DNA from: Patescibacteria group bacterium
GTDB lineage: Bacteria; Patescibacteriota; Saccharimonadia; CAILAD01; BJGX01
Length of the DNA stretch: 64,000 nt
Direction: 5' to 3'
NCBI GenBank assembly: GCA_026397045.1
Contig: JAPLVO010000014.1
Coordinates: 724 to 64,723 of the forward strand
The notes under the pieces are model-generated. The model ran no database searches, had not been told where the DNA came from, and saw only the letters and a program-made list of their open reading frames with translations. Shown piece after piece: positions 58,678 through 63,762 of this stretch. The position numbers were made by a program, and so were the translations under genes. The first letter of the stretch is position 1. Each line of letters opens with the position of its first letter.

Positions 58678-58805
58678 GTTTCCTCCTAATAGCTATATTG
58701 TACCACTTATAATGCCTACATATCAGCTAGGCAAAGTACCTAAGGCCATATTCCACTCGCTTATTAGCCCAACCAAAATATAATATTTATTCTTATAAAG
58801 ACTTA

Positions 58806-58985
58806 GGGCCAGAACTTGCGTCCTGGCCCCGGTATTTTATTTACCCACAGATACCACCTGTGCTTCTGAGGAGGAAAGGAGTCCTCAGAAGAAATCGGGC
58901 CCTGAGGCTAGAGAGTTCTACGACAGTAGAATAAAGCTTCAAAAGCCTACTCTCTAGCCTCCCCTTGGCTCCCGCGTTTTTTTGG
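58806..58985. other. Highly structured intergenic element (three strong hairpins incl. a 12-bp perfect stem), candidate ncRNA/regulatory region
   Basis: H1 GGGCCAG-N10-CTGGCCC + T-run; H2 CTTCTGAGGA-GGAAAGGAG-TCCTCAGAAG; H3 GAGGCTAGAGAG...(inner TTCTAC-GACA-GTAGAA)...CTCTCTAGCCTC followed by GCGTTTTTTT. Confidence 0.4.
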
Positions 58986-59050
58986 CTTGTGCCAGAATTA
59001 AATAATATCATAATTATAGTATTATGTCAATACTATAATATAACTAAATT

Positions 59051-59088
59051 ATAAAAATAACCCCCAACTTTACGGGGGTTATTTTTTT
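59051..59088. terminator. Bidirectional rho-independent terminator downstream of groEL (AACCCCC-N8-GGGGGTT flanked by A/T runs)
   Basis: Inverted repeat with T-run on + and ATTTTTAT on the minus strand, 30 nt after the groEL stop. Confidence 0.7.
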
Positions 59089-59119
59089 AATCTTTAAGCC
59101 ACTGGCTACCGGAAGGGAG

Positions 59120-61062: not shown

Positions 61063-61089
61063 TTAGCACTCTATACATATGAGTGCTAA
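61063..61089. promoter_or_regulatory. CIRCE operator (HrcA binding site), perfect consensus TTAGCACTC-N9-GAGTGCTAA
   Basis: Exact match to the CIRCE inverted repeat, located in the groES 5' leader. Confidence 0.9.
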
Positions 61090-61097
61090 TTGATATT

Positions 61098-61128
61098 AAT
61101 ATACATCTGGCAAAAGTTACTTGTCAAG
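61098..61128 (-). promoter_or_regulatory. Putative groESL sigma-70 promoter (TTGACA ... TATATT) between the two CIRCE copies
   Basis: Minus-strand read cTTGACAagtaacttttgccagatgTATATTaat; the -35 overlaps the second CIRCE. Confidence 0.5.
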
Positions 61129-61151
61129 CACTCTACCTATTAGACTGCTAA
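61124..61151. promoter_or_regulatory. Second, slightly degenerate CIRCE-like element (TcAAGCACTC-N9-GAcTGCTAA)
   Basis: One mismatch per half-site relative to the CIRCE consensus; overlaps the promoter -35 and the stop codon of the upstream NTase gene. Confidence 0.6.
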
Positions 61152-62056
61152 ATGTTATCTCTTATACTCCGCCACTGGGTGGCTAATTGGGCGGATGTAC
61201 CTTTATGGTGAAGATTAATAATATCTGGGCGAACCCGGATAAAAGCATCTGGGTGGTGGCTCTTAGGCTGGGCTGCGGTATGTCGCAAATGTCGGTGATA
61301 GCCGATATCGTCAAGCCTGTCGATAATTCTAAAGCCAGAACTATAAATTCGCATTGGAAGCTTGGGCCAAACAAAGTTTGGTAACTTTTCTTGAATGTAT
61401 GGGTCGCACTTTAGTATCCCGTACCAAATACTCGCCCCGTATATCGGCTTGGCACAGATCATGGCATAAACCAGCCCAGGCTCATTGACCTTCATTATAT
61501 CCTTCTGCATCTTAACCCCCTTGGTAGTCAAAAACATACCCAGGCTAAATCTACCTGCAGACACAAATTGATCCTCCAGCTGATGCAGAAGCTTAAGCAC
61601 GCCCATAAGTATGCCCTTGGAGACAAAAATACGGTTTGGAGAGGTAACTATTAGCAAATCAATATCGCTCTGATCGTGGGCATTCCCGAGAGCAACACTA
61701 TTTACCACTACTATAGATTTAACAAATGGCAGCATCCCGATAGCTCGAGCCCAGCGAAGAGCTTTTTTGAGCAATATCTGTTGCTGACCCAACATCTTCT
61801 TCTGATTAGGATATTTATGAGCCGATAATCCATATTTTCCATCGACCAAAGAAACCTTACCCCGCTTTTCCAAATTTACCAGCTGTTTCTTTATGGCCAA
61901 ATGGCTTGTTCTTATTGATACCAGGCTAAATATAGTATTAAAGTCTACGCGTAGCCCCCAAACAGCATAGTAGGCTAGTAGATCCAGGCAGGCATGGCTA
62001 ATTTGCGACTCTCTTTGCTTAGTTTTATAAACACTCATAGATACAGTATATCTCAA
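61148..62056 (-). CDS. Winged-helix + Pol-beta-superfamily nucleotidyltransferase fusion protein (possible HEPN-like C-terminus)
   Basis: 302 aa; N-terminal wHTH-like segment (…LVSIRTSHLAIKKQLVNLEKRGKVSL…), NTase signature VVVNSVALGNAHDQSDIDLLIV (G[SN]x9-11DxD), C-terminal helical region with R-x6-H (RLDDIGYH). Confidence 0.55.
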   Translation of the reverse strand: MRYTVSMSVYKTKQRESQISHACLDLLAYYAVWGLRVDFNTIFSLVSIRTSHLAIKKQLVNLEKRGKVSLVDGKYGLSAHKYPNQKKMLGQQQILLKKALRWARAIGMLPFVKSIVVVNSVALGNAHDQSDIDLLIVTSPNRIFVSKGILMGVLKLLHQLEDQFVSAGRFSLGMFLTTKGVKMQKDIMKVNEPGLVYAMICAKPIYGASIWYGILKCDPYIQEKLPNFVWPKLPMRIYSSGFRIIDRLDDIGYHRHLRHTAAQPKSHHPDAFIRVRPDIINLHHKGTSAQLATQWRSIRDNI

Positions 62057-62070
62057 ATAAAAGCAGAATG

Positions 62071-62280
62071 ACCCAGAGCTTTAAAAACTCTGGGTCTACT
62101 ATTGGGTGGGAGGCTGGGCCCACGATCTAAGCAATGTTTGCTTTTTACCCCATCAAAGGCAAACATCTATCACACAGGGCTCATTTCTCAATTTACGAGA
62201 GCGAGAAGCTATGTGGGTGGGCCCAGCCAAATGTTGCGGTAGTAGCTAGATAAAAAATTTGCTATCTGCTACTACCGCGT
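62071..62280. other. GC-rich, highly structured roughly 300-nt leader/intergenic element ending in a terminator-like hairpin 15 nt before the NTase start codon
   Basis: Minus-strand hairpin GACCCAGAG-N9-CTCTGGGTC followed by AUUCUGCUUUUAUUUGAG; long-range 12-bp stem GGCTGGGCCCAC/GTGGGCCCAGCC enclosing nested hairpins; 17-bp near-perfect hairpin at 62236-62278. Confidence 0.4.
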
Positions 62281-62421
62281 TATTCAACAAACAACACTAT
62301 TCAGCAGTATTCTGCAAGTGATCAGGCAAAATACCGGAATCATGCTGTTTGTTAAAATTGAAAAGTTCGTTCTTATTTTGCTCTAAGAATGAGCTAATAT
62401 TAAACCCTTACTGGCCAAATA

Positions 62422-63762
62422 TCAAGCAATTTTGTGGATGATTTCCTTTATCTTCTGTAAGCTGGCTTCTGCCGTGGCCCGATCTAGAGCCTCTAAATTT
62501 ACCCTTAGCAGGGGCTCGGTATTACTGGACCTAATATTGGCCCACCAGGACTTGTTATAAATACTCAGGCCATCTATGTAATCTAGCCGATCGGCTGTAA
62601 TATTTTGTCGTACCAAATCAATAGCATTTTGTGCGTCTGGAACCTCAAATGTCTGTTCAGCCAGAGCGTAGTACCTACGATAAGGCCGAACTAGCTCGGA
62701 AAGCTTTTTGCTAGATTTAGATAAAATAGAAAGAGCCCTCAGGCATGCTATTAACCCACTAGTATCGTTGTTAAATTCAGCAAAGTAATAGTGTTGGGCT
62801 TGCTCAATTCCAAGTACCGCGTGGTGCTTAGCCATAGCCTGCTTCATGCTCGGGCGGCCAACTTTTACTTCTATTGCGATCCCGCCTAGTCTTCCAATGA
62901 TCTCTGGTAGCGCTCTAGAGCATGAGGCATTATAGACAATACTGGATTTCTTTTGCGCCAAAGCCTGATGGGCAAAAACCAAGCCAAGTTCGCTAGCCGA
63001 GATAGTTCTACCGGTTTCATCAACCAGCATAGCCCTGTCCGCATCTCCATCAAATGCAACGCCGCAGTCAAACCCGCCGGAGCTAACCTTGCTCTTTAGA
63101 TCTACCAAATTGGCCTCTATCATGGGATTAGGATGATGGTGGGGAAAGTTACCGTCGGGAGTTAAATACAGCCCAACGATGTTTAGGTTGGTCTTTTTGA
63201 GTAGGCTCTCCACGACAATACCCCCCATGCCGTTACCGGCGTCCCAGGCTACCTTCAGCGGACGGTCAATGCTGCCTGCCGCCTTAATAGCGAAGTCAAC
63301 CCACAGGTTGGTAATATCAATCTTTTCCACGCTACCGATATCCACGGCTGGTGAAAACACCATATCCTTAGCCATAGACCTTATAATTTCTAGGCCCGAC
63401 CCCATACCTATCGGTGCTCCACCCTTACTGGTCAGCTTAATGCCATTATAGCCACGGGGATCGTGACTGGCTGTAACCATGGCGCCTCCAGCAAGCCCTT
63501 TGGATTCAATGGCATAGTAGAGCATATCTGTGCTTACCTGGCCAATATCCAGGACATCCCTACCCTGCTCAGTCAGGCCTCGGACGATATTATCTGCCAA
63601 ATCAATAGAATCCAGCCTCATGTCCTTGCCTACAGCGACTTGGCCTGGAGGCAAATACTGTGCCATCGACTGCCCCACTCTGTAGGCAAGCTCGGGAGAC
63701 ACACCCTTGGCGCTTTCGCCGCGGATGTCATAAGCCTTAAATACAGATGGATTAAATAGCAT
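62422..63762 (-). CDS. Phosphohexomutase (phosphoglucosamine mutase / phosphomannomutase family)
   Basis: Active-site Ser loop TASHDPRGYNGIKL, Mg-binding DGDADR; 446 aa. Confidence 0.85.
   Translation of the reverse strand: MLFNPSVFKAYDIRGESAKGVSPELAYRVGQSMAQYLPPGQVAVGKDMRLDSIDLADNIVRGLTEQGRDVLDIGQVSTDMLYYAIESKGLAGGAMVTASHDPRGYNGIKLTSKGGAPIGMGSGLEIIRSMAKDMVFSPAVDIGSVEKIDITNLWVDFAIKAAGSIDRPLKVAWDAGNGMGGIVVESLLKKTNLNIVGLYLTPDGNFPHHHPNPMIEANLVDLKSKVSSGGFDCGVAFDGDADRAMLVDETGRTISASELGLVFAHQALAQKKSSIVYNASCSRALPEIIGRLGGIAIEVKVGRPSMKQAMAKHHAVLGIEQAQHYYFAEFNNDTSGLIACLRALSILSKSSKKLSELVRPYRRYYALAEQTFEVPDAQNAIDLVRQNITADRLDYIDGLSIYNKSWWANIRSSNTEPLLRVNLEALDRATAEASLQKIKEIIHKIA

Follow-up and report, generated by a model that had tools for sequence, protein, structure and literature searches.

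The 383-nt spacer between pgm and a nucleotidyltransferase (NTase) gene in the window, as we call the whole 64,000-nt stretch of Patescibacteria DNA that was analysed, is probably a free-standing non-coding RNA gene with its own promoter and terminator, with the NTase gene being transcribed separately and leaderless. The RNA would be approximately 330 nt long and run on the minus strand from about 62390 to about 62057. In 5' to 3' direction the gene would comprise a sigma-70-type promoter, a stem P1 that encloses a hairpin P2, a hairpin P3, a three-way junction P4, a C-rich linker and an intrinsic terminator, and the NTase mRNA would be initiated from a -10 box between this terminator and the ATG. 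As far as sampled, the RNA family is confined to one freshwater clade of the Saccharimonadia, and the window copy is a divergent, AT-rich member of it.

Fold, covariation and distribution of the RNA family

The minimum free energy (MFE) of 234 nt of the minus strand is -101.6 kcal/mol, compared to -58.6 +/- 4.5 kcal/mol for shuffled sequences (z = -9.5; none of 200 shuffles matched it), which confirms that the hairpins noticed in an earlier, sequence-only reading of this DNA are real. All domains lie on the minus strand. The P1-P2 domain (62283..62356) was delineated by the match to our covariance model R1 and by MFE helices. It consists of the 15-bp closing stem P1 (62342-62356 / 62283-62297 in the MFE structure), which encloses the P2 hairpin (62326-62340 / 62299-62315) bearing the conserved UCCG...UGCUGA motif of the family. 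The domain corresponds to the first, AT-rich third of the spacer; it is part of the same RNA and had been overlooked so far. The near-perfect 17-bp hairpin at 62236..62278, which had already been described, is domain P3 according to both its R1 alignment to the P3 of the family and the MFE helix. P4 is a three-way junction (62112..62228) with hairpins at 62171-62215 and approximately 62129-62166, closed by the 12-bp stem GCUGGGCCC/GGGCCCAGC (62217-62228 / 62112-62123), which is in register with the GCCGGGCyC/GrGCCCGGC of the family. The long-range stem and its two nested hairpins had thus been recognized correctly, apart from one arm that had been given as 62213-62228. In a first hand alignment we equated this stem with P1 of the family, an assignment that was overturned by R1, which identifies the stem as P4 and locates P1-P2 in the AT-rich 5' portion of the spacer.

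P4 is separated from the terminator by a C-rich single-stranded linker, UCCCACCCAAUAGUA (62097..62111), which is unpaired in the MFE as well as in the centroid structure. Relatives carry GCCAyCC-type linkers at this place, and in the loci L002 and L178 the linker is absent and the terminator directly abuts P4. The P4 stem is followed by N-CCA in 11 of the 19 members. The spacer as a whole is not GC-rich in comparison to the genome, as had been assumed: its GC content is 40.8% vs 43.6% for the window, and within the spacer only the 117-nt P4 domain reaches 50.4%.

The entire spacer is collinear with a structured RNA that 18 related loci carry between pgm and the NTase gene. An alignment of 15 relatives made with MAFFT only revealed compensatory changes in 14 of 24 pairs. 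When 19 distinct members including the window copy were aligned with the fitted model, 95.1% of the cells were paired, a value equalled by none of 500 shuffles, and 20 of the 24 pairs had changed on both sides. Sliding the partner by 1-3 columns, as a control, left 32-53% paired. The P4 stem also covaries among the relatives. The sequence-only reading had made its structured region dependent on conservation or covariation in related genomes; the RNA is indeed conserved there and covariation is abundant. The compensatory changes indicate selection on the RNA fold, and the strand is fixed by G-U pairs (pair 34-71, for instance, is G-U in 17 of 19 members).

R1 detects the window copy at 62361..62224 with 26.5 bits (E = 2.8e-5). 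This is the sole match in the 64 kb and it is found at the syntenic position and on the syntenic strand. As a negative control, 719 kb of decoy loci carrying the primary motif, which a motif scan of viral contigs had picked up as chance matches, gave no match to R1. With scores of 34-134 bits in the other members, the window copy is the most divergent one, and the interior of its P4 is not alignable with the remaining members. The P4-only model R2 (9 pairs) finds the window P4 as the best, albeit weak, match in 4 kb with filters switched off (10 bits, E = 0.067), and yields no match with default filters. A BLASTN comparison of the spacer with upstream sequences from 28 orthologous loci gave nothing significant, so that the homology of the spacer is seen by the covariance model only. 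Among 11 near-identical strains, 3.4% of the sites segregate in the spacer vs 6.6-12.6% of the neighbouring four-fold sites. The species of the window is present in many GROS21 and SRR samples.

The gene order FemAB-pgm-NTase-groES-groEL represents a conserved housekeeping synteny across the Saccharimonadia. The comparison of gene neighbourhoods proposed in the sequence-only reading shows that pgm-NTase-groES-groEL is kept, and this arrangement does not mark a defence module. Wherever the NTase shares at least 57% identity with that of the window, the pgm-NTase spacer measures 345-845 nt, with the exception of L005, a close relative in which the NTase is kept and the RNA is deleted, leaving a spacer of 68 nt. 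The RNA is therefore dispensable in at least one lineage. In more distant clades pgm and the NTase gene are directly adjacent (gap of 2-6 nt) and lack the RNA, and another clade (L015, L019, L023) harbors an apparently unrelated structured insert of approximately 650 nt at the same junction. The insert of the L019 type is not detected by R1 or R2 and shows no BLAST similarity to the 5' extension module of the family. Within the family, the length of the RNA ranges from ~300 to ~800 nt due to gain and loss of whole modules, and its distribution tracks the phylogeny of the NTase. All members were collected beside NTase homologues (at least two of the close loci stem from a metagenome scan with NTase alignment, among the matches listed), and for this reason the constant place and orientation upstream of the NTase gene still fit a role in cis.

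Promoters, terminator and the NTase gene

A promoter scan of the minus strand identified a -35 hexamer TTGATA (62420..62425), which overlaps the pgm stop codon TGA (62422-62424), and a -10 hexamer TAATAT (62397..62402) at a spacing of 17 nt. The pattern TTGACn-17 nt-TAnTAT spans the pgm stop in every RNA-carrying relative, wherever the stop codon falls, and would set the start of RNA transcription near 62390. At the other end, an intrinsic terminator (62055..62096, minus strand) is formed by a hairpin of 12 pairs (62070-62096; dG -18 kcal/mol) and the U-rich tract AUUCUGCUUUUAUUU. A terminator-like hairpin with a U-rich tail had been noticed here before, with coordinates that were off by one base (62071-62097). 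Every family member possesses an 11-20 bp hairpin with U-rich tail at the equivalent place, with energies of -15 to -32 kcal/mol and sequences that are unrelated between the subgroups. As expected for a free-standing non-coding RNA gene, there are thus, as judged from these motifs, an own promoter immediately upstream and an own intrinsic terminator.

The winged-helix-turn-helix (wHTH) NTase gene (61148..62038, minus strand) encodes 296 amino acids, with the ATG at 62038 and the stop codon at 61148-61150. TTG 62056 had been proposed as the start previously, but ATG 62038 is used by nearly all of the more than 100 homologues, most of which have exactly 296 residues. With this ATG as start codon, the terminator hairpin ends 31 nt before the gene and not about 15 nt before it, as had been supposed; across the family loci the distance is 25-45 nt. 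A putative -10 hexamer of the NTase gene, TATACT (62045..62050, minus strand), is located 6 nt upstream of the ATG. A -10 box (TATAAT, AATAAT or TATACT) is found 6-10 nt before the ATG in 19 of 19 distinct close-clade loci, that is, in 18 loci with the RNA and in L005 without it, and a Shine-Dalgarno sequence before the ATG is absent from these loci. Moreover, at least 10 of the 51 genes in the window exhibit a leaderless-type layout. The conserved -10 box, the lack of a Shine-Dalgarno sequence and the commonness of this layout suggest that the NTase mRNA probably starts downstream of the RNA. Most likely, the NTase gene is leaderless and has its own promoter between terminator and ATG. The starts of both transcripts and the 3' end of the RNA were placed by such motifs and are to be taken as predicted positions.

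The NTase itself is a conserved CPR protein in which a winged helix is combined with a domain resembling adenylyltransferases. The NTase signature proposed before is present as N113-S114-x10-D125-x-D127, with N113, S114 and D127 invariant and D125 at least 90% conserved among 28 homologues. NTP_transf_2 is the sole Pfam match (24.1 bits vs a cut-off of 21), the Pol-beta superfamily pattern h[GN]S-x9-13-DxD is found on an alpha-beta-alpha-beta-alpha-beta core, and the fold matches ANT, MNT and GlnE. The nearest systems are adenylyltransferases of the ANT/AadA type and the GlnE/DrrA type as well as the minimal NTases of the MntA type. The R-x6-H motif, from which a HEPN-like region had been deduced, is not conserved, and neither an all-alpha HEPN domain nor a HEPN partner with a conserved R-x4-6-H was found. 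The NCBIfam model for MntA gives 14.1 bits vs a cut-off of 60, matches from PADLOC span just 27-51 residues of the NTase core at E >= 1e-4, and the models for AbiEii (DUF1814), MNT-HEPN, CD-NTase and SMODS recover nothing beyond the generic NTase core. As regards CD-NTase and SMODS, the protein resembles cGAS/DncV-like enzymes neither in fold nor in sequence. The suggestion of a defence module could therefore not be upheld, since no defence model matches beyond the generic NTase core and the synteny is that of housekeeping genes.

Alternative explanations and possible function

The sequence-only reading regarded the structured region as a riboswitch or attenuator, i.e. as a cis leader whose terminator governs read-through into the NTase gene. 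The location of the RNA directly upstream of the NTase gene and on the same strand in all 19 distinct loci, the short way from terminator to ATG and an aptamer-like, multi-helix conserved core with invariant unpaired nucleotides are in line with this, and a covarying sensor domain, as expected of a riboswitch, exists. However, a competition between terminator and antiterminator was not detected: in 17 members, pairing of the 5' arm of the terminator with the preceding 90 nt is at chance (mean z +0.33; window +0.33), and the best such duplex is no better than those of shuffled arms and far weaker than the very stable terminator hairpin. In silico, an open reading frame on the same transcript with a ribosome binding site after the terminator was not found either; the conserved -10 box without Shine-Dalgarno sequence lies at this place instead. 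The missing linker in L002 and L178, the turnover of whole modules and the lack of an Rfam riboswitch or T-box match speak against a cis leader as well, as does the fact that L005 and other clades keep, and presumably express, the NTase gene while lacking the RNA. We consider this explanation unlikely; the NTase gene adjoins the RNA, yet apparently is not under its control. More generally, the combination of structured leader and terminator can mislead, because, where leaderless genes abound in a genome, the promoter of the next gene may lie unnoticed within the 30 nt that follow the terminator.

The structure might also be mainly the 3' UTR of pgm, either with a stabilising or regulatory effect or as a precursor from which an sRNA is processed. 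The RNA is always located immediately 3' of pgm and no terminator separates it from the pgm stop codon, so that pgm transcripts must enter the RNA and end at its terminator. In this respect a 3' UTR and a separate gene are not mutually exclusive. On the other hand, the near-consensus promoter with its fixed 17-nt spacing is conserved also at loci in which the stop codon is displaced relative to it, and an RNA serving as UTR only would have no need of it, which makes this reading quite unlikely. It is very unlikely that the RNA is what remains of a mobile or selfish element (MITE-like or a degenerate intron) that inserted between pgm and the NTase gene and is devoid of a cellular function. The presence/absence polymorphism, the apparently unrelated insert at the same junction and the modular size of the element would fit such an origin, but the 64-kb window contains no further copy of the long-stem sequence above chance, the compensatory changes reflect selection on the fold, promoter and terminator are conserved, and the distribution follows the NTase phylogeny. 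Strong promoter, terminator and large conserved structure are also what one would expect of a very divergent housekeeping RNA (6S, SRP, RNase P or tmRNA) that is missed by the Rfam models in CPR. We regard this as extremely unlikely, since Rfam searches stay empty even at E <= 5-10, ARAGORN detects no tmRNA, and neither SRP domain IV, RNase P CR-I/CR-V nor a 6S-type central bubble is recognizable by eye. In addition, most Saccharimonadia lack the RNA at this locus and L005 has lost it, which would be unexpected for an essential RNA.

If the spacer encodes a free-standing RNA, as we suppose, our best guess is that it acts in trans, binding a protein or ligand in its folded form much like raiA or OLE, and not as a cis switch. 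The invariant internal-loop nucleotides UCCGA / UUGCUGA, CAUCGGGAAG and CAUCGUGCC might then form the contact surface. It is improbable, yet worth mentioning, that RNA and wHTH-NTase form a lineage-specific functional pair or that the RNA represents a new ornate catalytic or self-assembling class. In the first case the NTase could bind the RNA via its winged helix or nucleotidylate it, and the N-CCA after P4 recalls an acceptor end. Either case would mean a new RNA-protein or RNA-only machine in organisms with minimal genomes.

The genomes of CPR/Saccharibacteria comprise approximately 1 Mb, and we know of very few non-coding RNAs in these organisms besides the universal ones. That genomes of such small size retain a strongly covarying RNA of 300-800 nt, together with a promoter and a terminator of its own, argues for a function that is worth its cost. 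The large RNAs raiA, OLE, ROOL and GOLLD have repeatedly been found to have unusual biochemistry or architecture. Since the family described here is compact, modular and well supported by covariation, it should be tractable for Rfam curation, structural work and metatranscriptome checks.

Comparison with known RNAs

At gathering thresholds, Rfam 15 (including T-box, 6S, SRP, RNase P, tmRNA, raiA, OLE, ROOL, GOLLD and HEARO) gave no match, neither for the spacer of the window nor for 15 related loci, and in E-value mode the best hits of four members were chance matches to microRNA and lncRNA models far below threshold. This agrees with the visual impression, stated in the sequence-only reading, that T-box, RNase P, tmRNA and SRP motifs are absent, and ARAGORN detected no tmRNA. 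As candidates we dismissed 5S rRNA (suggested by the 117-nt three-way junction), SRP, 6S, RNase P, tmRNA, T-box and a MITE, for which no Rfam or ARAGORN match, signature motifs or repeats were found. Our literature searches did not turn up an RNA of this kind from Saccharibacteria or CPR bacteria. The family is thus without counterpart in Rfam.

With terminating riboswitches and T-boxes the RNA shares the succession of promoter, structured domain, intrinsic terminator and a gene on the same strand. It differs from them by the lack of an antiterminator partner, by unusually strong terminators, by a -10 box in place of the ribosome binding site, by its module-wise variation in length and by the absence of a match to any riboswitch or T-box model of Rfam. 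OLE, ROOL and GOLLD are ornate large RNAs (PMC12286853). The long variants of our family (600-850 nt; L001, L171, L172, L177, L179) resemble them in being GC-rich, modular and heavily structured. In contrast, there is no Rfam match to these RNAs, the window copy has a length of just ~330 nt, and we saw neither signs of oligomerisation nor the gene contexts in which those RNAs occur.

The raiA-motif RNA is a large orphan structured non-coding RNA of Bacillota and Actinomycetota, whose orientation and distance to neighbouring genes vary and which usually misses terminator stems (PMC10861870). The RNA from the window has no sequence or structure match to it (Rfam). Furthermore, the family has a far narrower range, i.e. 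one Saccharimonadia clade, is fixed upstream of one gene at all sampled loci and always ends with a terminator. Nevertheless, both are large multi-domain RNAs with strong covariation, conserved unpaired nucleotides and an own promoter and terminator, both take their name from a neighbouring gene, and both look like a riboswitch at first sight.

Gene order at the locus and properties of the NTase

The window stems from a member of the Saccharimonadia (Saccharibacteria, CPR), and the closest loci all belong to Saccharimonadia as well. On the minus strand, the genes are arranged in the order FemAB, FemAB, the phosphohexomutase gene pgm (62422-63762), a spacer of 383 nt, the gene of the NTase, groES, groEL and pgi, and the order pgm-NTase-groES-groEL is kept across Saccharimonadia. 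The pgm-NTase spacer measures 345-845 nt in loci that share 57% or more NTase identity with the window, with locus L005 as the single exception, and in most of the more distant clades only 2-6 nt lie between the pgm stop and the NTase ATG. The start codon of the NTase gene is ATG 62038, which gives a protein of 296 aa. A start at TTG 62056, as assumed in the sequence-only reading, is wrong, since the homologues support the ATG: the majority of more than 100 are exactly 296 aa long and the close-clade members start with MS(V/I/L).

The AlphaFold model of the NTase, built from 28 homologues, is confident (pLDDT 91.5). It reveals a core of the Pol-beta type with N113-S114-x10-D125-x-D127 and a C-terminal region of helices together with an invariant F-x-R-x-R-P-D-x-x-N beta-hairpin. 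This hairpin (F-x-R-x-R-P-D-I-I-N-L-H, residues 266-277, invariant in the NTase family) has no counterpart in the retrieved structures of ANT, MNT and GlnE, and may be the substrate-binding or second catalytic element of this CPR-wide NTase family. The residues of the R-x6-H motif, to which attention had been drawn, are not conserved among the homologues. Sequence models match only about 40 core residues of the protein. Its family is found widely among CPR phyla, in a synteny typical of housekeeping genes. Nothing points to the suspected role in defence or as a toxin.

Just past the NTase stop and upstream of groES, there is a perfect CIRCE operator (TTAGCACTC-N9-GAGTGCTAA) downstream of a TTGACA-18-TATATT promoter (61063-61089 and 61098-61127, minus strand). 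The groESL genes thus have an HrcA-type heat-shock control that is separate from the regulation of the NTase.

A covarying four-domain RNA in the spacer

The hairpins described earlier are real and were placed correctly to within a base or two. On either strand, the fold of the spacer is far more stable than the folds of shuffles (minus strand, z = -9.5; plus strand, z = -7.9). It is not richer in GC than the genome, as had been supposed (40.8% vs 43.6% for the window); the GC content reaches 50% in the 117-nt junction domain (P4) only.

By BLAST, the spacer of the window has no similarity to the spacers of related loci. The spacers of the relatives have obvious motifs and helices in common. 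For 15 of them, the 5' two-thirds were aligned with MAFFT, and the RNAalifold structure of this alignment has compensatory double changes in 14 of its 24 pairs. R1, the covariance model derived from this alignment, has one match in the whole 64-kb window (62361..62224, minus strand; 26.5 bits, E = 2.8e-5), which is syntenic in both place and orientation, and none in 719 kb of unrelated viral loci that were picked for containing the primary motif of the family. Fitting 19 distinct members, the window among them, to the model gives an alignment with 95.1% of the cells paired and variation on both sides in 20/24 pairs. No shuffle attained these values, and the pairing falls to 32-53% when the partners are slid by 1-3 columns. 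Covariation across the homologous spacers is therefore strong. The frequent G-U pairs identify the strand of the NTase as the transcribed strand of the RNA.

According to the R1 alignment, the elements recognized in the sequence-only reading are the two 3' domains of a four-domain RNA, all on the minus strand. P1 is a 15-bp stem (62342-62356 / 62283-62297), which contains the hairpin P2 with a near-invariant UCCG...UGCUGA internal loop. P3 (62236-62278) is the 17-bp hairpin and P4 the 12-bp long-range stem (62217-62228 / 62112-62123) described before, which closes a three-way junction. The stem at the base of P4 is in register with that of the relatives (GCUGGGCCC/GGGCCCAGC in the window vs GCCGGGCyC/GrGCCCGGC), and the differences are compensatory. 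With a P4-only model, the P4 of the window is the top, albeit weak, match in the surrounding 4 kb (10 bits, E = 0.067); its interior could not be aligned with the relatives. The RNA of the window is the most divergent and most AT-rich of the family. Directly after the P4 stem, 11 of 19 members carry N-CCA (e.g. GGCAC-G-CCA, L003:3911-3916), which resembles an acceptor stem with discriminator and CCA. This feature is not universal, and the window reads GCC-U-CCCA instead (62105-62111).

Among 11 near-identical contigs of the same species, 3.4% of the spacer sites segregate, as do 12.6% of the four-fold degenerate sites in pgm and 6.6% in the NTase gene. The few spacer substitutions lie mostly in loops or strengthen hairpins; position 62142, for instance, is A in the window and G in most strains, where it completes a 12-bp hairpin in P4. 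These population data are weak evidence of constraint on the spacer. In one of these contigs (L085:4282-6029), gene calling splits groEL into two ORFs, one of 294 aa without Pfam match and one of 259 aa, and the locus exceeds that of the other ten contigs by about 110 nt. The cause could be an insertion, a frameshift or faulty assembly.

Transcription of the RNA and its relation to the NTase gene

Every family member has a near-consensus promoter (TTGACn, 17 nt, TAnTAT) across the pgm stop codon, and its internal spacing is constant even where the stop sits elsewhere within the promoter. In the window, the -35 motif is TTGATA (62425-62420) and the -10 motif TAATAT (62402-62397, both minus strand). 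At the 3' end of every member there is a hairpin of 11-20 bp (-15 to -32 kcal/mol) with a U-rich tract behind it, and the hairpin sequences of different subgroups are unrelated.

In the 19 close-clade loci, there is no Shine-Dalgarno sequence between this terminator and the NTase ATG, and in all 19 a -10 hexamer (TATAAT, AATAAT or TATACT) ends 6-10 nt before the ATG (TATACT at 62050-62045, minus strand, in the window). The same arrangement, with a -10 box only a few bases in front of the ATG and no Shine-Dalgarno sequence, is found in at least 10 of the 51 long ORFs in the window, pgm included; a TATAAT-like box lies 6-8 nt from the ATG at, e.g., the gene starts 35560, 35621, 38181, 39461, 42585 and 63762. 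Another 20 genes of the window, such as groEL, have a clear Shine-Dalgarno sequence. Judged by these motifs, leaderless mRNAs appear to be common in the source genome, and the NTase next to the RNA appears to have its own leaderless promoter; its mRNA would start 3' of the RNA terminator. In clades without the RNA, the NTase likewise lacks a Shine-Dalgarno sequence and is coupled to the pgm stop codon. Insertion of an RNA gene with its own terminator at this junction would have forced the NTase onto its own promoter.

The proposal that the RNA is a riboswitch or attenuator gating the NTase in cis is most likely wrong. A terminator-type switch requires an alternative pairing in competition with the terminator. 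Across 17 members, the real 5' arm of the terminator has no advantage over shuffled arms in pairing with the 90 nt in front of it (mean z +0.33; also +0.33 for the window's own arm), and the best alternative duplex is in every case far weaker than the terminator hairpin. Further points argue against a sensor. The terminator directly abuts P4 in L002 and L178, and the RNA differs in size by whole modules, with 3' extensions in some members and a 5' extension of about 330 nt in six (L001:3239-3585, L171:738-1080, L172:745-1088, L173:892-1200, L177:656-1028, L179:823-1163), of which L173 is missing P1-P2. This conserved extension of the long variants, with the core ...GGGGGAGGUAGGGCGUGC...GCACGUAUCCGrGG..., lies between the shared promoter and P1. 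Moreover, a clean deletion has removed the RNA from L005, which is closely related to L007; everything between the -10 box of the RNA promoter and the 3' half of the terminator is gone. Its spacer of now 68 nt (L005:3933-4000) keeps the RNA promoter, the terminator 3' half and the NTase -10 box, and the NTase itself is kept. This natural loss is evidence that NTase expression can do without the RNA.

What speaks for a cis function is that position and orientation relative to the NTase are fixed in all members. However, all of them were found by searching beside NTase homologues, so that this could be partly an ascertainment effect, or else reflect a real link to the NTase. The earlier observation is real and richer than described, but the mechanism proposed for it is most likely wrong. 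The spacer is most likely a gene of its own, encoding a structured RNA that is specific to one clade and belongs to none of the known families.

Identity of the RNA and comparison with known RNAs

With Rfam 15, the spacer of the window and four representative relatives matched no family at gathering or permissive thresholds, ARAGORN found no tmRNA, and by eye there was no SRP domain-IV motif, RNase P CR-I/CR-V or T-box sequence. An essential housekeeping RNA is argued against by the loss in L005 and by the absence from the locus in other clades.

Two further regions may hold non-coding RNAs. At the pgm-NTase junction of a more distant Saccharimonadia clade (L019:3301-4000, L023:3311-4000, L015:1427-2125), there is a different, GC-rich structured insert of about 650 nt (53% GC), equipped with a TTGACA-17-TACTAT promoter of its own and a strong terminator. 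Neither BLAST nor the covariance models show any similarity between it and the RNA family, and Rfam has no match for it. Perhaps ncRNA genes favour this junction, or both RNAs may be very distant relatives. The groEL-pgi spacer (58678-59119, minus strand, 442 nt) also folds far more stably than expected by chance (z = -8.7). Besides the terminator of groEL, it holds a TTGACA/TATAAT-like stretch and about 200 nt of GC-rich sequence with another terminator-like hairpin at the end. Its Rfam matches do not rise above noise and BLAST finds nothing similar in related loci, so that it may be another unclassified ncRNA.

Literature searches retrieved no description of the spacer RNA. Since it matches nothing known and has analogues in kind only, we regard it as a new family of the orphan structured kind. 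Among its nearest analogues is the raiA-motif RNA, likewise an orphan structured RNA, which took its name from a gene next to it and is today considered to act in trans (PMC10861870). By this analogy, the RNA most likely acts in trans as a folded binding RNA, although we hold this view with low confidence. Its long variants come closest in kind to the ornate large RNAs (PMC12286853).
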